Source: Hyphobacterium sp. (GTDB lineage Bacteria; Pseudomonadota; Alphaproteobacteria; Caulobacterales; Maricaulaceae). From it: a DNA stretch of 64,000 nt. Each line of letters starts with the position of its first letter. The stretch's first letter is position 1. The position numbers and the translations under genes were made by a program. The notes under the pieces were generated by a model. The model did no database searches, had not been told where the DNA came from, and saw nothing but the letters and a program-made list of their open reading frames with translations. The stretch is from positions 1,283,652 to 1,347,651 of the forward strand of contig NZ_OZ244227.1 in NCBI RefSeq assembly GCF_965217055.1, written 5' to 3'. Positions 17,405-50,304 of this stretch are shown piece after piece.

Positions 17405-19720
17405 TCAATAACGGAAGGCGATGGTGCCGGTGACGGTCCGCGGATCGCCGTAGAAGGCGGTCAGCGTTCCCTCGAGGCCGAGCTCCGGAGCCAGCGTCGC
17501 ATTGTTCACAAAATCGTAGCCGGCGACGATATAGCGCTCGTCGGTCAGGTTGCGACCGTGGATGCCGAACTGCCAGCGGCCATCGTCGGAGTCCCATACA
17601 AGGCTCGCATTCCAGAGCGTGAAAGCTTCCTGGTCGATGCGGTCGAACGGGATCTCGAACTGGGTCGAATCCCCGCGATGGGACAAGGTGTTGAGGATGG
17701 TCAGCTCGCCGTTGCGCAGCGGCGTCGTATAGGTGAGCGTCGCGGCTGCCGTCAGTTCCGGCGTGTTCTGGATCTCGACCTGGTTGGAGATATCCTGGCC
17801 AAACGCATTGATGAAGGTTCCGTACTCGCCGTCGAGCAGGCCCAGGGCCCAGTCCAGTGACAGGGTATCGCCGCGGCCCGACATGTCGTCGGAAATCAGC
17901 AGCGAGCCTTCGTATTCGAGGCCGTTGATCGTGGCTTCGGCGGCGTTGGTGGTGACGCCCGTGAAGGTGTCATTGACGCCGTCGCCATCCGTGTCGACGC
18001 CGACCGAACCCGGGATCTGGACGTCCTGGTAGTCCATGAAGAAGACGGCGAGCGCATGGCGATAGCGGCCATTGTCGTAACGCCAACCGATCTCGTAGCT
18101 GTCCACTTCTTCCGGGTTGAAGCCCATGAAGTTGTAGATCTCATCAGCGCTGACATTGCCGTCGCCGTTAAAGTCCGGCGCCGCCGTGGTCTGGCCGCGG
18201 GGGTCGAAGCTGCCGCCCTTGAAGCCCTGGCTGTAGGAGCCGTAGATCGCGCTCTGGTCGTTGATCGTGAACAACAGCGAGGCGCGCGGCGAGAAATCGT
18301 CCCATTCGGCGCTGCCCTGGAAGTCGGACGTCGTCGCAATCAGCGTCGGGCTGCCGCCGAAGAATTCGGAGAAACCGCCAATATAGGTGCGGCGCAACAC
18401 GCGCGATGTGCGCTGGTCATTGGTGTAGCGGCCACCGATCGAGGCGCTGACCCATTCATTCAGGTCAAAACTGACATCGGCAAACACCGACCAGGTCTCG
18501 GTGGAGACATCGCCGAAGGTCTGGGCATTGAGCCCCGGCAAGCCGATCAGGCTGCCAAGCGGGCCGAGCACCACGTCAAACACCGTGCTGGCATTGGCAT
18601 CGAGATAATAGAGGCCGCCGACACCGCTGATCCGGTCGCCTTCGAACAGGATCTGGAATTCCTGGGAGAACTGGTCGTTCTCGTAGATCGCCGGAACGTC
18701 GAGATCGTCTGCCGGCAGGCTGTCGAAATCGATCGGCGTCGTCGATTCGTCCTGGCGATAGGACGTGATGCTGCGGAAGCTCCAATTGTCGTCATGCTGG
18801 TATTCGGCGAGCAGCGTGCCGCCAGACGCCTCGACATGCTGGTCGACGACATTGAGGCCGGCGCGGGTATCGTAGACATCGTTGAGCACAGGGGCGCCCG
18901 AGAAAGCCCCCGGGATCAGGCGGTGACCCTGGCGCGGCGCCGAATCGTCGGTCACCGTGTCACCGGACAGGCGGAAGAACCACTGGGCGTTGGGCTCGAA
19001 CTCGGCCGAAGCGCGGAAGGCCAGCACTTCCTTGTTGTAATTGTCCTGACCGGTCACGAGATTGCTGCCATAGCCGCCGCGATTGAGGCTGGCGACAGCG
19101 GCGCCGACGCGGAAGGTCTCGCTTAGCGGGGCCGATCCGGAGACGATGGCGTCGATCTGCTCATAGCTGCCGATATTGAGCCGGGCGTTCAGCGTCGGCG
19201 CGTCGGGATCGAGCCGGCGGGTGATGTATTTCACGGCGCCGCCGATCGTGTTGCGGCCGTAGAGCGTGCCCTGCGGACCGCGCAGGACTTCGATGGCCTG
19301 CACGTCGTAGATGTCGAGCACGGCCGCCTGCGGGCGGTTGAGATAGACATCGTCGAGATAGATGCCGACACCGGATTCAAACCCGGCCACCGGATCCTGC
19401 TGGCCAACGCCGCGGATGAAAGCCGTCAGTGTTGAATTGGTACCGCGGGAGACTTCCAGAGTGACGTTCGGCGTTGTCTGGCCGACAAAGGTGATGTCCT
19501 GGGCGCCCGATGTTTCCAGCGCGTCACCGGAAAAAGCCGTAACCGAGACCGGCACGTCCATGATGGATTCCTCGCGCCGGCGCGCGGTCACGGTGACGGT
19601 GTCGCGCTGGCCGTCCATGGTGGTGTCGTCCTGAGCTGCCGCAGGGGCGGCCATGACCGGCAGAAGCGACACGCTGGCCAGAAGCGCGGCGAGCCGAACG
19701 GAATGATTGCGGTATTTCAT
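17405..19720 (-). CDS. TonB-dependent receptor
   Basis: Signal peptide ..MAAPAAAQ, plug motifs DTVTVTARR and IEVLRGPQGTLYGRNTIGGA, long beta-barrel, aromatic C-terminus (IAFRY). ATG 19720 is preceded by GGAGGGAG. Confidence 0.9.
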   Translation of the reverse strand: MKYRNHSVRLAALLASVSLLPVMAAPAAAQDDTTMDGQRDTVTVTARRREESIMDVPVSVTAFSGDALETSGAQDITFVGQTTPNVTLEVSRGTNSTLTAFIRGVGQQDPVAGFESGVGIYLDDVYLNRPQAAVLDIYDVQAIEVLRGPQGTLYGRNTIGGAVKYITRRLDPDAPTLNARLNIGSYEQIDAIVSGSAPLSETFRVGAAVASLNRGGYGSNLVTGQDNYNKEVLAFRASAEFEPNAQWFFRLSGDTVTDDSAPRQGHRLIPGAFSGAPVLNDVYDTRAGLNVVDQHVEASGGTLLAEYQHDDNWSFRSITSYRQDESTTPIDFDSLPADDLDVPAIYENDQFSQEFQILFEGDRISGVGGLYYLDANASTVFDVVLGPLGSLIGLPGLNAQTFGDVSTETWSVFADVSFDLNEWVSASIGGRYTNDQRTSRVLRRTYIGGFSEFFGGSPTLIATTSDFQGSAEWDDFSPRASLLFTINDQSAIYGSYSQGFKGGSFDPRGQTTAAPDFNGDGNVSADEIYNFMGFNPEEVDSYEIGWRYDNGRYRHALAVFFMDYQDVQIPGSVGVDTDGDGVNDTFTGVTTNAAEATINGLEYEGSLLISDDMSGRGDTLSLDWALGLLDGEYGTFINAFGQDISNQVEIQNTPELTAAATLTYTTPLRNGELTILNTLSHRGDSTQFEIPFDRIDQEAFTLWNASLVWDSDDGRWQFGIHGRNLTDERYIVAGYDFVNNATLAPELGLEGTLTAFYGDPRTVTGTIAFRY

Positions 19721-22256: not shown

Positions 22257-22290
22257 AAAACGGACCGGAGACAACGCTCCGGCCCGGCTT

Positions 22291-22320: not shown

Positions 22321-22839
22321 CTAGCGGCGGTGCGCGTAGGACCCTGCGAATTCCCATTCGCCATGGCTGTTGCGGCACATTTCGAACGAGCCGCGATCAT
22401 AGTCACCATATCCCGACCAGGATTCGGATTCGAAACTGGCGCAGGTCTGGTGGCCGCGACGATAATAATCGCGGGGCTGGATGGCGCCCTTCGCACCGGT
22501 CCTGGGATTTTCCCAATAGGACGGTGCCCGATACTCTGCGGACCAGCCGCTGGCATGGGCATACTGGCGCTCGTCACACTCGTTGAAGCGGCCCGAGAGC
22601 CCGACATTCACGTTCAGGACCGGACCAACATCCAGCATTGCGCCCAAACCCAGCCCGCCAGACGAGCGCGGCTGGCAAGCGCGCTCGAAATAACGGAAAT
22701 TCTGGCGGTCGTAACCGCCCTCGTAATAGCTGTGGTGATAGCTGAAACTGGTGGATCCACCCGATTGTGCGTAGGCACCGGCGCTTGCGAGCGCGACCAG
22801 CGGCAAGGCGGTGGCGAGGAAAAGCTTCTGAATCTGCAT
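22321..22839 (-). CDS. Secreted Tyr/Gly-rich 4-Cys protein, unknown family
   Basis: 172 aa from ATG 22839 (AGGAGGA SD). Signal peptide MQIQKLFLATALPLVALASAGAYA/Q; four Cys. An ECF-type promoter lies just upstream. Confidence 0.75.
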   Translation of the reverse strand: MQIQKLFLATALPLVALASAGAYAQSGGSTSFSYHHSYYEGGYDRQNFRYFERACQPRSSGGLGLGAMLDVGPVLNVNVGLSGRFNECDERQYAHASGWSAEYRAPSYWENPRTGAKGAIQPRDYYRRGHQTCASFESESWSGYGDYDRGSFEMCRNSHGEWEFAGSYAHRR

Positions 22840-22877
22840 GACATCCTCCTTTGCAAATGACGTCCTGCAAGGAAGAC

Positions 22878-22903
22878 AACGCATGACAGGCGATTTTTAT
22901 TCC
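22878..22903 (-). promoter_or_regulatory. ECF-type promoter GGAATAA-N15-CGTTGTCT for the 4-Cys protein gene
   Basis: Read on the minus strand. The -35 overlaps the anti-sigma stop codon and the -10 lies 38 nt before ATG 22839. Confidence 0.5.
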
Positions 22904-23592
22904 CGCCAATCTGCAGCGGCCGCCCGTTCGACGGATTCGGCATCCAGAGGGTCGCCGTCAATGCGCCGGTCAATCTCGTCCAACAGGGTGGACGGAAGGG
23001 GCGACGCAGCGAGCTGGTAGCCTGCCGCCGGCCTTTCCTCGCCGGAGATCAGCAATTGCACCTGCCAGCCCTGTTCCGCGCGGCAGGCGAGACCACGCGT
23101 GGCAGCGGACGTCCCGGCGAAAGCACGGCAATATCGTCCGCTCTCGTCGCGGAAGGTGACCGGAATCTGCCAGGCCTCGCTGCCAACAGGGGCATCGAGA
23201 GCTGCCGCGAGCTGCGCATTGGCCAATGTTGACTGCCCGGAAATGCCGGAATCCGTTGCCAGGAACTGGGCGCCAACAAAAAGGCCCAGCGCCAGACTTG
23301 CCAGCGCGGCCAGTCCCGGTGCTGCCAGGGGACCGGTGAACCAGTTGCGAATCCGGTCGGCCACGCCGTAGGCGGGCGCCTCCTCGCCCAGCAAGGCGGC
23401 GAACCGCCGGGGCACCGGATCGTTGGCGACGGGCGCATAGTGTGAGCGGATCCTGTTGGCGAGACGACGCTGCGCCTGTGTACGTGCGGCAAGGTCCGGA
23501 TCGGCCTCGAGGTCAGCTTCGAAACGGGCCTGACTTTCAGCCGGCATCTCGCCATCGACGAAAGCCAGAATGTCTTCATCGCGCCAGCTCAT
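22897..23592 (-). CDS. Single-pass membrane anti-sigma factor
   Basis: 231 aa. The start overlaps the sigma gene stop by 4 nt. N-terminal anti-sigma-like helix (DEDILAFVDGEMPAESQARFEADLEADP), central TM helix, periplasmic domain with 2 Cys. Confidence 0.75.
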   Translation of the reverse strand: MSWRDEDILAFVDGEMPAESQARFEADLEADPDLAARTQAQRRLANRIRSHYAPVANDPVPRRFAALLGEEAPAYGVADRIRNWFTGPLAAPGLAALASLALGLFVGAQFLATDSGISGQSTLANAQLAAALDAPVGSEAWQIPVTFRDESGRYCRAFAGTSAATRGLACRAEQGWQVQLLISGEERPAAGYQLAASPLPSTLLDEIDRRIDGDPLDAESVERAAAADWRE

Positions 23593-24101
23593 GCGGCGTC
23601 TCCCTCGCTCTCGGACAATTGCGCTTCAAGCGCCTGGCGACCACGCGCCAGGCGGCTGGTCAGCGTGCCCATCGGTATGTCGAGTACGGATGCCGCTTCC
23701 TTGTAGGACAAGCCCTCCACGAGGACGAGCGAAACCGCGATGCGCTGCTCGGCGGGCAAGGTCTGCATTGCGGCCTCGACGGACAGGGCGCGGATCCGCT
23801 TGTCGAATGCCGGGTCCTCGGCCCCGACGCCGGTTCCGGCCTCTTCCGGCGCAAAAGTGGCGGCCCGCCGGGTGCGGGCCCTGATCTCGTCGATCCAGAT
23901 ATTCTTGATGATCCTGTACATCCAGCTGTCCAGTCTTGTCCCGGCCTGAAACTGGCCCGACCGGGTCAGCGCTCGCTCCAGCGCCATCTGGAGCAGATCG
24001 TCGGCATCTGCGTCATTGGGCGCCAGAGACCGGCTGAACCGCCGCAAGCGCGGCATGATTTCCAGCAATCCCGCCCGAAATTCGGCATCTTTTCGCGGCA
24101 T
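23589..24101 (-). CDS. ECF (sigma-70 family) RNA polymerase sigma factor
   Basis: Region 2 (ADDLLQMALERAL ... DSWMYRIIKNIWIDEIR) and region 4 (LVLVEGLSYKEAASVLDIPMGTLTSRLARGR). ATG 24101 preferred, because the track start at 24143 lies inside the promoter palindrome. Confidence 0.9.
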   Translation of the reverse strand: MPRKDAEFRAGLLEIMPRLRRFSRSLAPNDADADDLLQMALERALTRSGQFQAGTRLDSWMYRIIKNIWIDEIRARTRRAATFAPEEAGTGVGAEDPAFDKRIRALSVEAAMQTLPAEQRIAVSLVLVEGLSYKEAASVLDIPMGTLTSRLARGRQALEAQLSESEGDAA

Positions 24102-24115
24102 GCTATTATTCCGGC

Positions 24116-24148
24116 AACGAATGGAAGAATGCGTTTCTTCCATACGTT
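24116..24148. promoter_or_regulatory. 33-bp near-perfect palindrome holding two interdigitated divergent ECF-type promoters (GGAAGAA-N15-CGTT on each strand)
   Basis: AACGaATGGAAGAA-tgcgt-TTCTTCCATaCGTT. Plus-strand motif at 24123-24148, minus-strand motif at 24141-24116. Confidence 0.6.
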
Positions 24149-24205
24149 ATCGATTTTGCGGGTCCGGCATAGTCCGCCGGCTCAATGGAATCCGGAGGCC
24201 CTGAC

Positions 24206-25465
24206 GTGTTGCGCCTGTTGTTTCTTGCGGTGTTCTGGCTGGCCGCGGCGCCGGCCTTCGCCCAGCTCGGATTGCCCAACCGGCTGCCGGTGCGCCTGCC
24301 GGATACGCCGCTGGGCGAACCGGAGCGATTGCTGGACGAGCTTGATCGACGCGTCCTCGACGAGATCGAGGATGCCCGGCGTGACACGCTGAACACCTTG
24401 CTTCGCGCCCATCGCGATCTGCTGGAGCGGGCGCCGGGAGGCGATGTCGTGCTGCGCGGAGAAGTGATCGTGATCGATCCGTCGCCGGCCCTCCTCGCTC
24501 TGGCCAGTGCCGCCGGGTTCACCGTGATCGAGGACCGCAGCGAACCGGCGCTGAACTTGCGTTATCTGCGCTTGCGCGCGCCGAGGGGGATCGGCACCCA
24601 GGGCGCGCTTGGCCTGTTGCAGCAGTTCGATCCGGGCGGGCTGTTCGATCTCAACCCGATCTACACGCTGTCGGGTGAAGCAGGCGGCCGCAAGACCGTC
24701 CAGGACGCAGGGATCCGCAATGATGTGCGGATCGGCATGATCGATGCCGGAGTACCGGCCGATAGTTTCTCACCCGGGCAGGTGATGACCCGCGCCTTCC
24801 GCGGGTCGCGCGTCGCGCCGCACGAGCACGGTCTGCAGGTCGCCGCCATCCTGGCATCGGCCGACGGAGCGGCGCCGGGGGCGCGGCTCTTTGCTGCCGA
24901 TGTCTACGGCGGGGAACCGACCGGCGGCTCGGCCGACACGATCCTGCGGGCGCTGGGCTGGATGGCGGAAGCGGATGTGCGGGTCGTCAATATCAGCATT
25001 GTCGGACCGCGGAATGTCGCCTTGCGCGCCGCGATTGAACGCTTCACCGCACAAGGCCGGATCGTCGTCGCGGCGGTCGGCAATGACGGAGCAAATGCGC
25101 GGCCGCTCTATCCGGCCGCCTATCCGCAAGTGATTGCCGTAACCGGCGTTGATGCCAGCCATCGCATCCTGCCGGAGGCAGTGCAGGGCGATCATGTCGA
25201 CTTCGCGGCGCGCGGCATGGACATGGTCTGGCCGTCGCTGAACGGGCGGCGGGTACAGGTGCGCGGCACGTCTTTCGCCGCCCCGATCGTCGCCGGTCTC
25301 CTTGCCACGGAAATCGCCGCAGGACGTCCGCCACAGGACGCTGAAGCCGCGCTCGCCGCCAGCGCTCGCGATCTCGGCCGGCGCGGCCGCGACGATGTCT
25401 ACGGGCATGGCGCCGTGGGCGATAACCTGTTCCGCGCACGGCGAGCCGATCTGCGCCGCCGCTAG
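24206..25465 (+). CDS. S8 family (subtilisin-like) serine peptidase with N-terminal pro/extra domain
   Basis: Catalytic residues in IGMIDAG (D), HEHGLQVAAIL (H), AAVGNDG (N), GTSFAAPIVAG (S). Signal peptide VLRLLFLAVFWLAAAPAFA/Q. GTG 24206 with GGAGG 7 nt upstream is favoured over the track ATG 24185. Confidence 0.9.
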   Translation: MLRLLFLAVFWLAAAPAFAQLGLPNRLPVRLPDTPLGEPERLLDELDRRVLDEIEDARRDTLNTLLRAHRDLLERAPGGDVVLRGEVIVIDPSPALLALASAAGFTVIEDRSEPALNLRYLRLRAPRGIGTQGALGLLQQFDPGGLFDLNPIYTLSGEAGGRKTVQDAGIRNDVRIGMIDAGVPADSFSPGQVMTRAFRGSRVAPHEHGLQVAAILASADGAAPGARLFAADVYGGEPTGGSADTILRALGWMAEADVRVVNISIVGPRNVALRAAIERFTAQGRIVVAAVGNDGANARPLYPAAYPQVIAVTGVDASHRILPEAVQGDHVDFAARGMDMVWPSLNGRRVQVRGTSFAAPIVAGLLATEIAAGRPPQDAEAALAASARDLGRRGRDDVYGHGAVGDNLFRARRADLRRR

Positions 25466-25474
25466 CTTTATTCC

Positions 25475-25500
25475 GGAAGAAACCTCCCGCTCGATCCGTT
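25475..25500 (+). promoter_or_regulatory. ECF-type promoter GGAAGAA-N15-CGTTGTCT for the anchored low-complexity protein gene
   Basis: Same heptamer and spacing as the palindrome copies. Lies 59 nt before ATG 25559 (SD GAAGGGAGG). The track TTG start (25499) falls inside the -10. Confidence 0.55.
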
Positions 25501-25558
25501 GTCTGACATGACGGACCCGGCCCACCGGCCGGTTCCCGGTCCGCGAAGGGAGGATTTC

Positions 25559-26419
25559 ATGCGTACGCTTTTGACCATTGCCACCATCCTGGCCGCCATC
25601 CCGGCCGCACACGCCCAGCTCGGCACGGTGACCGGTACAGTGCAGGATACCACGCAGCTCGAGACCGACGCGCTCGATCTCGACGCGACCAGCCGGATCG
25701 GCTCGCGCCTGCAAACCGATGTACCGACCTCGCGCATCGAGCAAATGCGCCAGCGCCGCGCCCTGCGGGAGGCCCGCAGTGCCGCTGTCGAAGCGCGCGA
25801 GGCACCGATAATGAACACCGGATCGCAATCGGCGGTGCAAACGGGTGTCGCGGATACGGCCTCTGCCGCCGTTTCGAATACTGCGGCAGCATCCGCCACG
25901 CCGCGCCAATCCACCGCCTCGGCGGTCACGACCAGCTCTGCTGACATTGCCGGCCAGACCGCTGTTGCCGGCCAATCCACGATTGTGACGGTCGACCCGC
26001 CGGCCCCGCGTCCCGTGGCGCGGGTGCAAAGCGCAGCCGAAACGGTCGATGACGCCGCCGCGTCAATCGCGGTGGAGGTGCCATCTTCTTCCGTGTCCGT
26101 GCCGGCGGTTAGCGCCAGCGCGCCTGCCGTGGCGGTGACCTCGCCCGCCCCGCGCCCCGCTTATGTCGGGTCCGGGGGCTCCACGGTCATTATCCGCGAT
26201 CGCAGCCAGCCGGCCCAGGCCGAACCCGTCGCGGCCACACCGCCAGCGCTTCAACCCGCTTCGCGCGTGACGCCGCAGCCGGTGCCGGCCCGCGCGGCCA
26301 ACAGATGGATTGATCCGCAAAGCATTTCCGAGAATGCCTTCTCAATCTGCTGCGCGCTGCTGCTCGTCCTGACGCTGCTGATGGCGGCGCACATGCTGAC
26401 CCGTCGCCGGGTCCGGTAG
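25559..26419 (+). CDS. Exported Ala/Ser/Thr/Pro/Val-rich (mucin-like) protein with C-terminal membrane anchor
   Basis: 286 aa. Signal peptide MRTLLTIATILAAIPAAHA/Q, long low-complexity region, C-terminal TM (FSICCALLLVLTLLMAAHML) followed by TRRRVR. Confidence 0.75.
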   Translation: MRTLLTIATILAAIPAAHAQLGTVTGTVQDTTQLETDALDLDATSRIGSRLQTDVPTSRIEQMRQRRALREARSAAVEAREAPIMNTGSQSAVQTGVADTASAAVSNTAAASATPRQSTASAVTTSSADIAGQTAVAGQSTIVTVDPPAPRPVARVQSAAETVDDAAASIAVEVPSSSVSVPAVSASAPAVAVTSPAPRPAYVGSGGSTVIIRDRSQPAQAEPVAATPPALQPASRVTPQPVPARAANRWIDPQSISENAFSICCALLLVLTLLMAAHMLTRRRVR

Positions 26420-26442: not shown

Positions 26443-26469
26443 GGGGCGGTCTTCGGGCCGCCCCTTTTT
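26443..26469 (+). terminator. Intrinsic terminator after the anchored-protein gene
   Basis: GGGGCGG-N8-CCGCCCC followed by TTTTT. Confidence 0.75.
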
Positions 26470-26472
26470 GCC

Positions 26473-28470
26473 TCAGCGCGTAATCCGCAGGCCGATGCTC
26501 ACCGCTCGTTCCTCGCCGGGGAAGTAGCGGGCACTGCCAAAGGCAAAGTCGGCGCGCTCGGCATAGCGGATATCTGCGAGATTGCGGATCGTCCCGATCA
26601 ATGTGACGCGGTCATTGGCGGACCAGCGCAGGCGCAGATTGAGGAGGTCATGCCCGTCATAGTCATTGGCATTGGCGGCATCGGTAAAATAGCCACCGAC
26701 ATGCACCCATTCGAGGCCAGCCCGGAGCCGGTCGGTGGCCTGCCAGTCGAGGCGGGCATTCCAGAGCCATTCGGGCGCCGAATCGATACGATTGCCGGCA
26801 CGGATGAGTTCGCTGGCATTGCCCACCACCCGGTCGAAATCATAACTGTGCTCGGCCCAGCTTCCCGCGAGCGCGACATCGAGACGCTGTGTCAGCGGCC
26901 AGTCGAGATCGAACTCGATGCCGTGATGGCGCGTCGCACCATCGGTGACATTGAAGCCATCGGCATCGCGAAAGAAGACATTCGTCTTGCGCATGGCAAA
27001 GGCGACCAGTTCGAGGCGGCCGCCACCGGCAAAACCGCGGCGGTAGCCGATTTCCGCATTGTCGAGCACTTCCGGTTCAATGCCGGAAATGTCCTGACCG
27101 GGTTGCAGCCGGTAGAGCTCGGCGGTCTGCGGCGCGCGGCTGCCGCGCGCGAGGCGTGCAAACACCGCTCTGTTGTCAGCAAGCTGCCAAACCAGCCCGG
27201 CATGCGGGGTCAACACCGCGAAATCGTCTGTGCGGTCCGGCGGGCGCAGATAGCGGCCGACAGTGTTGGCGGGCAAATGATTGTCATAGTCGAAGCGCGT
27301 GGCTTCCCAGCGCGCGCCGGCGTGCAGCGTCCATGCCGGCGACAGCGACCAGCGAGCCTGCGCATAGAGCGCCGCGACATCCGCCCTCACCGTGTAATCA
27401 TAATGTTCGCCCTGCACGAAGGAGAAAACGGTCGGCCGCTCCTGGGTTTCCGTCAGATAGCCTTGCGTACGCTCGATATCTGCACCCAGTGTCAGGCGAC
27501 CGGACGCGGCTTGCCGGACCAGCGCGGCCTGCAGACCGATACTGTCATGACCGCTTTCCTCGAGCGCCTCTGACGGCAGGAAATGCATACGGAAATCCAT
27601 CGCATTGGACCGGGCGTAGGGGGTCAGCGACCCGTGCCACGGGCCGTCGAGATCCGCTTCGAGCCGCAAGGCTGCGCGCACGGTATAGGCATCGCGGAAA
27701 CCCTCCGGATCCGGATTACTGCGCGATAGCGACAGATTCTCATAGGCGCGCGGGCCGCGAATATAGCCGGCGGTCTCCTGGTTGAGCGAGATCGCTGCGA
27801 GGGTGAAGCGCCAGTCGAGTCGCGGCGTGCTGCCTTGTGCGCGCAACAAGGCTTCGAGCCGGTCGAGCCCGGCCTCGGCGCGCCAGCCCTCCTCGTGCTG
27901 GCCTGCCAGGCCGGCCAGCCATTGCAGGTTTTCCGACGTCGCGCTCCACAGCGCGTGTCCGCGTACGCGGCCGAGGGAGCCGGCTTCCAGCTCCAGCGTC
28001 GGTGGCAGTGTGGCCGGGCCGGGCGTGCGATAATTGATCAGTCCATGCAGCGCATTGGAGCCGTAAAGCGCCGGGCCCGGACCCCGCACGATCTCGACAC
28101 TGCCGGTCAGTCCGCCAAGCGCCTCGAACAGGCCGTTGACATTGGCAAAGCCGGCGGCGCGCAAAGGGATTCCGTCCTCGAGATAGAGGAAGGACCCCGC
28201 CCCGGCGCCCCCGGTCAGGACCGGCGACCGGATGGCGGTGAGATGCTCGACGCCGTTGCCACGATTGATGAAAGCGCCGGGCGTGCGGTTGACCAGCTCG
28301 GCCGGGTGCTGGGATCCGGTCTCGATAATCGCATCGCGCGAGATAAACGTGATCGGCAATACGGTTTCGACGCGTGCCTCGCCGCGGCGGTCTCCGGTGA
28401 CGACGATGACGTCCTGCGCAATGGCCGGTGCGGCAAAAAACAAGAAGGCAGCAATGAAAGCGCGGGTCAT
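26473..28470 (-). CDS. TonB-dependent receptor
   Basis: 665 aa. Signal peptide ..APAIA/QD, plug motifs (VIVVTGDRR, GAFINRGNGVEHLTAIRSP, VEIVRGPGPALYGSNALHG), beta-barrel. Confidence 0.9.
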   Translation of the reverse strand: MTRAFIAAFLFFAAPAIAQDVIVVTGDRRGEARVETVLPITFISRDAIIETGSQHPAELVNRTPGAFINRGNGVEHLTAIRSPVLTGGAGAGSFLYLEDGIPLRAAGFANVNGLFEALGGLTGSVEIVRGPGPALYGSNALHGLINYRTPGPATLPPTLELEAGSLGRVRGHALWSATSENLQWLAGLAGQHEEGWRAEAGLDRLEALLRAQGSTPRLDWRFTLAAISLNQETAGYIRGPRAYENLSLSRSNPDPEGFRDAYTVRAALRLEADLDGPWHGSLTPYARSNAMDFRMHFLPSEALEESGHDSIGLQAALVRQAASGRLTLGADIERTQGYLTETQERPTVFSFVQGEHYDYTVRADVAALYAQARWSLSPAWTLHAGARWEATRFDYDNHLPANTVGRYLRPPDRTDDFAVLTPHAGLVWQLADNRAVFARLARGSRAPQTAELYRLQPGQDISGIEPEVLDNAEIGYRRGFAGGGRLELVAFAMRKTNVFFRDADGFNVTDGATRHHGIEFDLDWPLTQRLDVALAGSWAEHSYDFDRVVGNASELIRAGNRIDSAPEWLWNARLDWQATDRLRAGLEWVHVGGYFTDAANANDYDGHDLLNLRLRWSANDRVTLIGTIRNLADIRYAERADFAFGSARYFPGEERAVSIGLRITR

Positions 28471-28594
28471 GCGGGAGCAATGTAGTCAGCCCGCCGCGCA
28501 GGGCAATTTGACGGCGGCGGCAGATGACATTTCGCGTTACCGCGCTAGGCTTTTTGCGGGGGATGGTTGCGGGGACAGGTGGAGGCCGGGCTTG

Positions 28595-29383
28595 ATGACG
28601 TACTGGCGCATGATTGCCGCGATCGCGGCTTGCAGCCTGCTGGCGCCGGACGCGTCGGCCAATCGCCGCACTGCGCTGGAGATCGAGGCAGATTACACGG
28701 CATCCGTACTGGTGTTTCGCGTGGGCCGTGTGTCGCTCAATGCAAATCTCGGCATCGACGGCTATGCCGCCCGGGCGCATGTGCAAGCGGCCGGGCTGGC
28801 GGCCCTGTTCACCGATTTCTCGATCGATTCGGACGTGGAAGGGCTCTTCGCGCAAGGCCATCCGGTACCGGTCAATTACGGCCATATCGAACGGACAGGT
28901 GACAAGACCCGTGTGGTCGATGTCGATTTCGAGGACGGGATCGCACGGTCCACCGCTTCACCGGCCTTCTCGTCATGGGGCGATCCGCCGGCGAGCGAAA
29001 CCGACCGGACCGGCGTGGTCGACCCGATGACGGCGACGCTGCTGCTCTCGGAACTCGTCACGGCTAGCGACAGCGCGCCCTGTGAAGGCGTGATCCCGGT
29101 CTTCGACGGCAAGCAGCGCTATGATCTCAATCTGGTTTCGCGTGGCATTGAAACCATCCGCACGCGCGGCTATCGCGGCGAGGTTCTGGTTTGTGATGCC
29201 TATTATGCGCCGATTTCCGGCTATGACCCGGAGGATTGGCCGGAACCGGGCGAAACCCGGCACCCCTTGCGCATGTGGATCGCGCCGATCGGCGACGGCA
29301 CAGCTTTCCTTCCCGTCCGCCTGCACACACGGGCCGGATTTGGCGGCGTGACGGTGGAATTGCGCGAATTGCGGCTGGATTAG
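28595..29383 (+). CDS. DUF3108 domain-containing exported protein
   Basis: 262 aa from ATG 28595 (MTYWRMIAAIAACSLLAP..). Pattern Y.A....F.VG...L...... plus the C-terminal VTVELRELRL resembles DUF3108. The track ORF start at 28232 is shadow. Confidence 0.65.
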   Translation: MTYWRMIAAIAACSLLAPDASANRRTALEIEADYTASVLVFRVGRVSLNANLGIDGYAARAHVQAAGLAALFTDFSIDSDVEGLFAQGHPVPVNYGHIERTGDKTRVVDVDFEDGIARSTASPAFSSWGDPPASETDRTGVVDPMTATLLLSELVTASDSAPCEGVIPVFDGKQRYDLNLVSRGIETIRTRGYRGEVLVCDAYYAPISGYDPEDWPEPGETRHPLRMWIAPIGDGTAFLPVRLHTRAGFGGVTVELRELRLD

Positions 29384-29459: not shown

Positions 29460-30239
29460 TTAGCCCACCGATGCCATGCCGGATACATCCGCCCGCGTCG
29501 CATTCAGCACGATGGCCTGTGCGTCCGCGTCGAACATTGCATCGCTTTCCGAGACAGCAACAACACCCTCGGTATTGATGCCCGAACGGTCGAAGTGAAC
29601 CTGACCATTCGTGTCGGCGTCATAACGGGCGACGGTACCGATGCGATAGCCGTCACTGCTGTAAACGGCCACATGGCCGCTTCCGCCGGCGTGGGAGGAC
29701 GCCGCGGCGCCGGTATAGGCCGACGCACTGTCCGGCGCATCAGCGCTGACCGAACCGCCCGCATACATTTGCGAGCGCTGCTCCAGCTGCGATGCCAAGC
29801 GGGCGCTGGCATTGCTGCGGTCATAGGCCGTCAGCGAGGTTTGCAGCGTCTGGCGCATGCGCGTCTGCGCGTCCAGCGTGGCGTCGGTCTGGGCGTTGAC
29901 CGTGTCGTCAACACCAAGATCCGTGTTCACACCGCTGTCCAGGCGAGAATCGATATCCGTCTGTTGGTCGAGTCGGGAATCGATATCCGTCTGCTGGTCC
30001 AGGCGCGAATCAAGGTCCGTCTGTTGGTCCAGCCGGGAATCAAGATCTGTTTGCTGATCGAGGCGGGAGTCGATTCCGCTGCGCTGGTCGACGATGCCTT
30101 GCGTGGTCTGGCTTGTCGTGGACGACAAGGAGCCCCGCGTCTGGTTCTGGACAGAACCCGTGAGGTCGGTGACCTGCGCCATAGCTGCCGTCGTCGGCAG
30201 GATCATGGCCAGTACAAGGCCGGTCGTTGCGATTTTCAT
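29460..30239 (-). CDS. Secreted protein with five DSRLDQQTD decapeptide repeats and a possible PRC-barrel-like C-terminus
   Basis: 259 aa from ATG 30239 (GGAGAG SD). Signal peptide MKIATTGLVLAMILPTTAAMA/Q. The C-terminal VYSSDGYRIGTVARYDAD... is PRC-barrel-like (weak recall). Confidence 0.75.
   Translation of the reverse strand: MKIATTGLVLAMILPTTAAMAQVTDLTGSVQNQTRGSLSSTTSQTTQGIVDQRSGIDSRLDQQTDLDSRLDQQTDLDSRLDQQTDIDSRLDQQTDIDSRLDSGVNTDLGVDDTVNAQTDATLDAQTRMRQTLQTSLTAYDRSNASARLASQLEQRSQMYAGGSVSADAPDSASAYTGAAASSHAGGSGHVAVYSSDGYRIGTVARYDADTNGQVHFDRSGINTEGVVAVSESDAMFDADAQAIVLNATRADVSGMASVG
29937..30092 (-). repeat. In-frame 30-bp tandem repeat (5 units)
   Basis: (I/L)DSRLDQQTD four times plus IDSRLDSGVNTD, preceded by the degenerate VDQRSG. 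Confidence 0.8.
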
Positions 30240-30272
30240 TTCAAGCTCTCCATTGGTTGCGAGCACCAATAC

Positions 30273-30297
30273 AACGCGAAGGCCAAATCGGAGTTCC
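30273..30297 (-). promoter_or_regulatory. ECF/EcfG-type promoter GGAAC-N16-CGTTGTAT for the DSRLDQQTD-repeat gene
   Basis: Read on the minus strand. The -10 lies 33 nt before ATG 30239. Confidence 0.5.
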
Positions 30298-48713: not shown

Positions 48714-49493
48714 TCAGGCAGCGGCGAGCCGCGCTGACGGCCCGACGTCCGTGCACGCATCCTGGTAGGCACGCCAGCTGGCATGACCGAGCCAGGGGAA
48801 GACAATTGCCAGACCGATGAGGAAGAAGGCGGTTCCGATGATCGTCCAGAAGGCGATCAGCCAGGCCCATGTCAGCATGGCGAACGGATAGCGGCGGACC
48901 GCGGTGACCGAGGCGATCAGGGCGGTGGCGGCGTCAATCTCGCGATCGATCAACATGGGGAAGGAAATGGCCGAAATGGCGAAGGCTGCGAGCGCCAGTG
49001 CGGCGCCGATCACGGTGCCGACGACGGCCATGGTAAGGCCGGCGGGATCGCCGAGTATCCACGCGGTGAAGCCGGCAAAGGTCGTATAGTCCTGGCTCGC
49101 GAAATAAGCGTAGAGAAACTGGGCAATTCGCGCCCAGCCCAGGAGCAGAATGACGAGAAGCAGGCCGAGGAAGGCGACCTGGCTGATCTTCTCGCCAGAA
49201 ACCAGCCAGAGATCGCTGAAGGTCACAGACTTGCCTTCGTCGAGATGCTTGGAGACCTGGTAGATTCCGACCGCGAACATTGGGGCGATCAGGGCAAAGC
49301 CGGACAGCGCCACCGGGATCCAGGCCGACCAGCCGATGACAAAAAGACCAAGCGATAACAGCACGCCGACCCCCACGAAGATCAACCCGTATCCGATCGA
49401 CACGAAAGGCGCTCGGCTCAAATCACTTGCGCCCGCTTTCAGCCAGCGCATCGGCGCGCCCGGCCGGATCTCGTTAATTTCGACAGCTGCCAT
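48714..49493 (-). CDS. DUF2189-like integral membrane protein
   Basis: 259 aa from ATG 49493 (MAAVEINEIRPGAPMRWLKAGASDL...), 5-6 TM helices. The track extension to 49739 has no coding character. Confidence 0.6.
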   Translation of the reverse strand: MAAVEINEIRPGAPMRWLKAGASDLSRAPFVSIGYGLIFVGVGVLLSLGLFVIGWSAWIPVALSGFALIAPMFAVGIYQVSKHLDEGKSVTFSDLWLVSGEKISQVAFLGLLLVILLLGWARIAQFLYAYFASQDYTTFAGFTAWILGDPAGLTMAVVGTVIGAALALAAFAISAISFPMLIDREIDAATALIASVTAVRRYPFAMLTWAWLIAFWTIIGTAFFLIGLAIVFPWLGHASWRAYQDACTDVGPSARLAAA

Positions 49494-49593: not shown

Positions 49594-50304
49594 GTGAGCG
49601 GTATGGAAGCCTTGGCAGAGATCAGTTTCCTCGGCGGCCTGATCGCCGGGCTGGCGTCGAGCCTGCATTGCGCCGGCATGTGCGGCGGCATCGCCTCCGG
49701 GCTGATGTTCAGCCTGTCACCGTCGACCGATACCGGCACGCGGACCGGCGTGCTGATGGCGGCCCAGACCGGGAGGGTCCTGGCCTATGTGATCGCCGGA
49801 GGCGCAGTGGGCTTCGCCGGGACCGCGCTCTACGCGCAAATGGATTTTTCCGCCGCCCAGGCGGTGTTCCGCTGGGGCGCAGCGATGATGCTGGTCTGGA
49901 TCGGCTTCTCCCTGACGGGCTGGCTGCCCGGAATAGCCCGGCTCGACCGGGCGTTGGCCCCGGTCACACGGCTCGTGATGCGCCCGGCGCTGGTTATCGG
50001 CCCGGCCTCGCCACTGCTCGCCGGCCTGGCCTGGGGGGCCCTGCCTTGCGCCATGGTCTATGCGGCCCTGCTCTATGCCATGCTGAGCGGTAGCGCGCTG
50101 TCGGGCGCGCTGGTGATGCTGGGTTTCGGGGTCGGCACGCTGGCCTCCGTCACCGTGACCGCGCTCGGCATCAACTGGCTCGAACGCTCCGGACGGAAAG
50201 CCCGTTTCCGGCTGGTGTCAGGATTTGTCATCGCCTTGCTGGGCCTGGCGATGCTGGCCGTTCCGCCGGAAGTAATCGCAGCGCTGTGCCGGGTGCCGGG
50301 CTAA
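49594..50304 (+). CDS. DsbD_2 / TauE-SafE-like membrane protein (HCxxMCGG motif)
   Basis: 236 aa, about 6 TM helices. SLHCAGMCGGIASG near the N-terminus, as in the membrane proteins commonly found next to ccoS. Confidence 0.65.
   Translation: MSGMEALAEISFLGGLIAGLASSLHCAGMCGGIASGLMFSLSPSTDTGTRTGVLMAAQTGRVLAYVIAGGAVGFAGTALYAQMDFSAAQAVFRWGAAMMLVWIGFSLTGWLPGIARLDRALAPVTRLVMRPALVIGPASPLLAGLAWGALPCAMVYAALLYAMLSGSALSGALVMLGFGVGTLASVTVTALGINWLERSGRKARFRLVSGFVIALLGLAMLAVPPEVIAALCRVPG

Follow-up and report, generated by a model that had tools for sequence, protein, structure and literature searches.

Which sigma factor reads the short GGAA...CGTT motif that recurs in front of the genes of a small locus of Hyphobacterium sp., and is it the same sigma factor at every copy? 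The locus lies in a 64-kb stretch of the genome (the window; 128 kb when both strands are counted) and is built around a gene for an extracytoplasmic function (ECF) sigma factor and the adjoining gene for its anti-sigma factor. A secreted S8 (subtilisin-family) serine protease is encoded divergently; a secreted, C-terminally anchored low-complexity protein (the anchored protein) is encoded beyond the protease, a small secreted four-cysteine (4-Cys) protein beyond the anti-sigma factor, and a secreted protein with DSRLDQQTD repeats (the repeat protein) some way off. A first-pass annotation had listed five copies of the motif as promoters pointing at these genes, and had proposed the local sigma factor, the general-stress sigma factor EcfG, or both as their regulator. 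All five are present at their listed positions, read as described, and hold up as oriented ECF-type promoters; the question of the regulator divides. The locus appears to be an ECF26-type (RpoE6-like) module in which the local sigma factor would read four promoters (form common to all four: GGAA(G/T)AAA-N14-CGTT(G/A)T), while the fifth site would belong to a separate, EcfG-type class. We put the probability of this reading at roughly 0.8.

Are the sites more than chance occurrences of a short motif? The expectation of about two copies of an 8-base motif in 128 kb, offered initially, was too low: for GGAA-N17-19-CGTT it is 4.99, and with nine matches observed (a count reached in 9 of 100 shuffles) this loose form is not enriched. 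The extended form is: GGAAGAA-N15-CGTT with at most one mismatch is found five times against 0.86 expected, and none of 100 shuffles reaches five. A weight matrix was built from 60 sites upstream of sigma genes at other loci, with no contribution from the window or from its three nearest relatives. Scanned over both strands, it places the four local promoters at the top of the list, with 16.9-24.9 bits and the next score at 9.5; the individual matrix windows are 24110-24145 (-) at 24.9, 25471-25506 (+) at 22.8, 22872-22907 (-) at 18.4 and 24119-24154 (+) at 16.9 bits. Four scores of 16 bits or more compare with 0.11 expected and with a maximum of two in 300 first-order Markov simulations. (A technical note that counts against our reading: the regular expression that gathered the training sites fixed GGA and CGT, so that a partial circularity attaches to those columns of the matrix, though not to the G/T-A-A-A extension or to the post-S8 sites described below.) Shuffles, matrix ranking, Markov simulations and the post-S8 sites together rule out chance as the explanation. 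Four additional loose matches, at 18655 (+), 27427 (-), 49930 (+) and 50183 (-), are all intragenic (the genes concerned encode two TonB receptors and, at 49594-50304, a membrane protein), score poorly by the matrix and are chance matches. A GGAAGAA-like match at 48821 (+) was set aside: its -10 element is CGTC and it falls below all the listed matrix scores.

Is the arrangement peculiar to Hyphobacterium? Eighty loci, anchored on homologues of the S8 protease, were fetched from Alpha-, Beta- and Gammaproteobacteria (at least 559 matched stretches encode a relative), and their sigma and anti-sigma homologues were found by tblastn with the window proteins. A sigma homologue adjoins S8 in 75 of the 80, divergently in 74, and most loci retain an anti-sigma gene. 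Orthologous modules outside the Alphaproteobacteria come from Massilia, Roseateles, Pelomonas, Steroidobacter and Arenimonas. The promoter unit travels with the module. Upstream of sigma, and in the orientation of the sigma gene, tGGA(A/T)GAAA-N14-CGT(T/A) is found in 70 of 75 loci, its CGTT lying at a median distance of 14 nt from the sigma start (63 loci). A second site is just as constant: a plus-strand matrix site falls between -60 and +250 nt relative to the S8 stop codon in 67 of 77 loci, against about 0.14 predicted by the background (10 matches in the remaining 876 kb of flanks, or 0.0057 per kb-strand). The gene that follows encodes a low-complexity protein with a signal peptide and a mature end starting AQ(L/V)(L/V)GG, of which the anchored protein of the window is the positional counterpart, and several of the rare matches elsewhere in the flanks precede more copies of such secreted low-complexity proteins. 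Across the 80 loci, then, the secreted low-complexity protein encoded downstream is no less constant a target than the sigma gene, a modest addition to what has been published on ECF26. In six genomes of the Hyphobacterium lineage (L001-L003, L082, L084, L085) the anchored-protein and 4-Cys sites stand out as phylogenetic footprints: GGAA(G/T)AAA and CGTTGTC are invariant and the spacers vary.

The module is of a known type. RpoE6 of Sinorhizobium meliloti has been placed in group ECF26; rpoE6 is divergent from SMa0142, which encodes a serine protease, in a layout "widely conserved among group ECF26"; its overexpression activates SMa0142, ecfR6, SMa0146 and SMa0148; and the ECF26 promoter consensus is -35 GGAATA / -10 GT (Lang et al. 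2018, PMC6180224). The Hyphobacterium sigma factor has these features of the group: 1) it consists of sigma regions 2 and 4 only (170 aa, in a group of about 170-200 aa); 2) a serine protease is encoded divergently from it (S8 on the plus strand, sigma on the minus strand); and 3) the four promoters assigned to it are of the GGAATA / GT(T) kind, most of them with G instead of T at position 5. As a proxy for the ECF26 group model, comparison with RpoE6 gives 44% identity over 151 aa (E = 6e-33). Set against the S. meliloti megaplasmid pSymA, which has the same layout, the window proteins show 44% (sigma), 33% (S8) and 24% (anti-sigma) identity; pSymA is not among the plasmid matches to S8 at E <= 1e-20, and its region was compared directly. 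(S8 peptidases are not mentioned in the main text of the ECF reclassification paper.)

The likeness to RpoE6-EcfR6/SMa0142 extends to the targets, which cluster beside the sigma gene in both systems, and to the promoter type, -35 GGAATA / -10 CGTT. The RpoE6 targets also include a secreted low-complexity protein, probably SMa0146 (L081 10291-10773 (+), which is pSymA 80290-80772): encoded after ecfR6, it has a signal peptide that leads into a long (SSN)n repeat. The systems differ in detail. The -35 element is mostly GGAAGAA(A) in Hyphobacterium, and the GGAA-to-CGTT spacer is N18 rather than the N17 of S. meliloti; the window sigma promoter is a strong consensus one, interleaved with that of the protease, whereas the mapped rpoE6 promoter is degenerate (GGACGAT...GATT); and the additional targets are others, predicted in the window to be the 4-Cys and membrane-anchored proteins. 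Other ECF26 systems (RpoE1 and RpoE4 of S. meliloti, with their sulfite response, and the catalase/cytochrome b561 systems of ECF26s1; PMC7826278) share the sigma group, the anti-sigma type and the GGAATA-type -35 element but differ in neighbours and targets: the window locus has no catalase, cytochrome b561 or sorT-type genes.

Could EcfG nevertheless read all five sites, the local sigma factor being dispensable? The motif had in fact been equated with the EcfG consensus, with which the four local sites do share GGAA and CGTT; region 2 of the local sigma factor matches the PhyR_sigma2 model, and the RpoE6 motif has itself been noted as similar to that of ECF15, the group of EcfG (Lang et al., PMC6180224). 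The equation fails at the four local sites, where GGAA(G/T)AAA puts G or T in place of the near-invariant C of the EcfG -35 AAC triplet (only 3 of 79 Sphingopyxis promoters depart from the triplet; PMC7083833) and adds a conserved AAA extension in a GGAA-N18-CGTT layout. The same unit, upstream of sigma and after S8, is conserved in Beta- and Gammaproteobacteria, and it always travels with the local sigma gene. Beta- and Gammaproteobacteria are not known to have a PhyR-NepR-EcfG system. The local regulators are also of another kind: a membrane anti-sigma factor of 231 aa with a hydrophobic helix and a periplasmic domain, encoded downstream of sigma, takes the place of a small upstream NepR; no PhyR is encoded near the local sigma gene, and orthologues of that sigma factor extend beyond the Alphaproteobacteria. 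Control of the whole set by EcfG must accordingly be rated very improbable.

The fifth site, ahead of the repeat-protein gene, had been counted as a copy of the same motif, and there the two must be separated. It has a spacing shorter by 1 nt and a -35 box that reads GGAACTCC instead of GGAAGAAA, and the matrix scores it below zero at every permitted spacing. It is, on the other hand, an exact GGAAC-N16-CGTT, matching the EcfG consensus as reported in PMC7083833 (and the GGAAC-N16-17-CGTT form of the ECF15 group). Upstream of orthologues of the repeat-protein gene (46-50% protein identity; L082, L084, L085), and in L001, GGAAC-N16-CGTT is kept between unrelated spacers, while the four module sites in these four genomes remain GGAA(G/T)AA. 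Because each form is kept in the same genomes, the two classes are distinct and evolutionarily stable. Judged by this conservation, the fifth site is a genuine promoter that belongs to another class and, as far as a 64-kb window allows the assignment, it is most likely read by EcfG. Neither a second sigma-like sequence nor PhyR is found in the window (tblastn, best off-target E = 0.53), and neither is among the genes called in the 8-kb flanks of L082, L084 and L085.

Several points weigh against assigning four sites to the local sigma factor and the fifth to EcfG. Sigma-dependent transcription has been demonstrated only for the S. meliloti homologue (PMC6180224), and the sigma dependence of the four promoters in Hyphobacterium is inferred; what the sequences show is the motifs, how they are conserved, the synteny and homology to a system studied by experiment. 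A plus-strand site between sigma and S8 is recognisable in only 28 of 75 loci, so that sigma dependence of S8, as far as promoter matches reveal it, is not universal in the family. In S. meliloti the RpoE6 sites are of the shorter form, GGAA-N17-CGTT, and spacing alone therefore leaves the local sigma factor possible at the fifth site. Finally, the repeat protein resembles the secreted targets of the module (it has the same kind of signal peptide and mature N-terminus as the anchored protein), and every genome of the Hyphobacterium lineage examined has its gene linked to the module. The last two points favour an alternative in which the local sigma factor would read all five promoters and the repeat protein would be a fifth member of its regulon, by itself or jointly with EcfG. 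It fits with such an arrangement that extra copies of secreted low-complexity proteins in other taxa carry the module motif, and that RpoE6 weakly cross-activates some targets of RpoE2, an ECF15 sigma factor (Lang et al., PMC6180224). What speaks for a division between two sigma factors is that the negative matrix score arises at the most informative positions (CTCC in place of GAAA in the -35 extension), that four genomes retain GGAAC at this site and GGAA(G/T)AA at the other four, and that the GGAAC-N16 layout occurs in none of the 70 sites upstream of sigma. A local sigma factor with five promoters is, on balance, unlikely, though it retains some weight.

With four promoters assigned to the local sigma factor and one to the EcfG type, two look-alike promoter classes are told apart, which calls for caution in motif-based regulon calls in Alphaproteobacteria. 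A regulon and a promoter definition are also gained for the ECF module of Hyphobacterium, as a member of the known ECF26, RpoE6-like type.

Why, then, is there a palindrome at the center of the locus? The imperfect 33-bp palindrome at 24116-24148 results from two overlapping divergent promoters, those of sigma and of S8, the -35 box of the S8 promoter lying inside the spacer of the sigma promoter. One might instead take it for the operator of a dimeric DNA-binding regulator, with no promoter pair at all, and its inverted repeat looks the part: the arms, 24116-24129 and 24135-24148, are 14 nt long and 93% complementary. The dyad is not what other clades keep. The offset of +8 between the half-sites, as in the window, is found at five loci of Hyphobacterium and Maricaulis (L001-L004, L006); at 14 loci of Caulobacterales and Sphingomonadales the offset is -5, which places both promoters on the same ~35 bp; at eight loci the divergent sites are 15-86 nt apart; and at 43 loci the sigma-side site stands alone. 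(The sequence of the -5 arrangement is GGA(A/T)GAAACG-N11-CGTTTC(A/T)TCC, the -35 box of one promoter covering the -10 box of the other; the loci are L018, L022, L046-L048, L050, L053, L055, L058, L068, L070, L072, L075 and L080.) By this comparison it is the oriented -35/-10 unit, facing its gene in every clade, that is conserved, and not the dyad; the anchored-protein and 4-Cys sites are, moreover, single and non-palindromic. An operator in place of the promoter pair is scarcely tenable. The overlap of the two promoters would have a consequence of its own: with each -35 box inside the opposite spacer, two polymerases could probably not occupy both central promoters together, and from this geometry we infer mutual exclusion at the palindrome.

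How would the module work? The membrane anti-sigma factor would hold sigma until an envelope signal (itself presumed) sets it free, and RNA polymerase bearing sigma would then initiate at the four promoters of the common form. Transcription of its own sigma/anti-sigma operon would constitute positive feedback; the other products would be the divergent S8 protease, the anchored protein encoded past it, and the 4-Cys protein encoded past the anti-sigma gene. Because terminator-like hairpins sit only at the outer ends, after the 4-Cys and the anchored-protein genes, the four promoters probably serve two divergent operons, each of which has one more promoter inside it. Transcripts of the RpoE6 regulon start 8-9 nt past the CGTT box (transcription start marks in Table 1 of Lang et al., PMC6180224), and the starts predicted by this rule are entered in Table 1 together with the other features. 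The sigma -10 CGTT lies 14 nt upstream of ATG 24101, which is also the family median; if transcription begins about 9 nt past CGTT, sigma mRNA would be near-leaderless across the family, with a leader of 5-6 nt and no ribosome-binding site. A weak sigma-70 promoter match (9/12) at 24082-24109 (+) was discarded: its -10 box is lost in L003.

Table 1. Genes, predicted promoters, predicted transcript starts and hairpins of the locus (positions in the window)
Feature	Position	Strand	Remarks
Sigma/anti-sigma operon promoter (predicted, autoregulatory)	24116-24141	-	GGAAGAA-N15-CGTT; best matrix score in window, 24.9 bits
S8 protease promoter (predicted, sigma-dependent)	24123-24148	+	GGAAGAA-N15-CGTTAT; 16.9-19.2 bits
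Anchored-protein promoter (predicted, sigma-dependent)	25475-25500 (feature 25475-25504)	+	GGAAGAA-N15-CGTTGTCT; 22.8 bits
4-Cys promoter (predicted, sigma-dependent)	22878-22903 (feature 22874-22903)	-	GGAATAA-N15-CGTTGTCT; 18.4-20.6 bits
Repeat-protein gene promoter (putative, separate class)	30273-30297 (feature 30269-30297)	-	GGAAC-N16-CGTTGTAT; matrix score <0
Predicted sigma transcript start	24107	-	leader ~6 nt
Predicted S8 transcript start	24157	+	leader ~49 nt to GTG 24206; GGAGG ribosome-binding site
Predicted anchored-protein transcript start	25509	+	leader ~50 nt
Predicted 4-Cys transcript start	22869	-	leader ~30 nt
Small secreted 4-Cys protein gene	22321-22839	-	weak 17kDa_Anti_2 match
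Anti-sigma factor gene, 231 aa	22897-23592	-	NCBIfam anti-sigma matches below cut-off
ECF sigma factor gene, 170 aa	23589-24101	-	Pfam Sigma70_r2, Sigma70_r4_2, PhyR_sigma2
Secreted serine protease gene, S8 (subtilisin family); 419 aa, start GTG 24206	24206-25465	+	Pfam Peptidase_S8, E = 2.4e-24
Secreted, C-terminally anchored low-complexity protein gene	25559-26419	+	
TonB-dependent receptor gene	26473-28470	-	
DUF3108 protein gene	within 28232-29383	+	
DSRLDQQTD-repeat secreted protein gene	29460-30239	-	public record 259 aa
Terminator-like hairpin, 3' of 4-Cys gene	22261-22286	-	
Terminator-like hairpin, 3' of anchored-protein gene	26443-26464	+	

One can go further and picture a self-contained envelope-sensing circuit, carried by more than 500 genomes from three proteobacterial classes. 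It would be made up of sigma, an anti-sigma factor whose two-cysteine periplasmic domain has no known fold, a subtilase of the periplasm and at least one secreted disordered protein, with feedback through the protease, a tie to EcfG and mutually exclusive promoters. If this were so, the induced protease would act on the co-induced disordered protein or the anti-sigma factor, so that proteolysis would feed back on the circuit; the EcfG-type promoter on a neighbouring, paralogous secreted protein would connect the circuit of Hyphobacterium with general stress; and the overlapping promoters would add an exclusive choice between more sigma and more protease. In its entirety this picture is doubtful.

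What is known of the proteins themselves? The sigma factor has Sigma70_r2 (46 bits) and Sigma70_r4_2 (52 bits) and, by Pfam, neither region 3 nor extensions; its nearest solved structures are ECF sigma factors, and its stop codon overlaps the anti-sigma start by 4 nt (23589-23592). In the S8 protease, which is identical to a public 419-aa record, the alignment of homologues shows no variation at D180, H208 and S356. The anti-sigma alignment has the invariant residues A10, D13, G14, E15, C155 and C170 and retains an AFVDGE motif; the two invariant cysteines lie in the periplasmic domain (residues 120-231), in the motif F..GRYCR.F...G..CR...W. A search of the PDB by sequence yields no solved relative of the anti-sigma factor. 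Its AlphaFold model (predicted local distance difference test score, 79.6) has predicted N-terminal helices, a beta-rich, confidently folded C-terminal domain and, at residues 95-105, a predicted helix inside a low-confidence linker. Comparison of the model with PDB folds gives no significant match (best E, 0.12), its N-terminal helices showing a weak resemblance to RslA. Residues 41-68 match the NepR model of Pfam at 19.2 bits, under the cut-off of 25.7. The three other target proteins (4-Cys, anchored and repeat) match nothing above cut-off in Pfam and NCBIfam, and no family is assigned to the anchored protein in either collection; the sole matches are weak, 17kDa_Anti_2 and, in a Sphingopyxis counterpart, a PRC-barrel.

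The positions of the promoters had been used to argue for shorter reading frames, and four start codons are corrected: sigma ATG 24101, S8 GTG 24206, 4-Cys ATG 22839 and repeat-protein ATG 30239. The shorter starts agree with public records or called genes (419 aa for S8, 259 aa for the repeat protein, 172 aa for 4-Cys orthologues and 170 aa for one sigma orthologue), with the caveat that 184 aa are called for two other sigma orthologues. The distances from site to start that had been given for the anchored-protein, 4-Cys and repeat-protein genes (58-59, 38 and 33 nt) are likewise correct, as is the placing of the 4-Cys -35 box over the anti-sigma stop codon (TGG CGG GAA TAA). The anchored-protein promoter lies in the gap that separates the S8 stop codon from ATG 25559.

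Gene order around the module varies among its relatives. In the Hyphobacterium lineage the 4-Cys gene has the anti-sigma gene as its neighbour; Maricaulis (L004) has it downstream of the S8 and secreted-protein genes. Homologues of the repeat protein are confined to the Hyphobacterium lineage. The anchored and repeat proteins share a signal peptide and a mature N-terminus of the type AQ(L/V)x(T/D)(V/L)TG(T/S)VQ(D/N)xT (BLASTP E = 0.017) and may be distant paralogues. In L082, L084 and L085 the repeat-protein gene is two genes away from the anchored-protein gene, with no TonB receptor at that position, and the TonB-dependent receptor gene of the window looks like a lineage-specific insertion near the module; in L001, a gap of 2.1 kb between the anchored-protein and DUF3108 genes suggests that a TonB receptor is present.

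The S8 genes of Steroidobacteraceae (L026, L030, L032, L049, L060, L061, L071, L077) have no sigma motif upstream. They have a conserved element of another kind, usually TTCAACTA(A/G)..., with the variant TTC(T/C)A(C/A)TAAGGTG in L030, L049 and L061, which ends 6-11 nt before the ATG; it could be a housekeeping -10 box that gives rise to a leaderless S8 mRNA.

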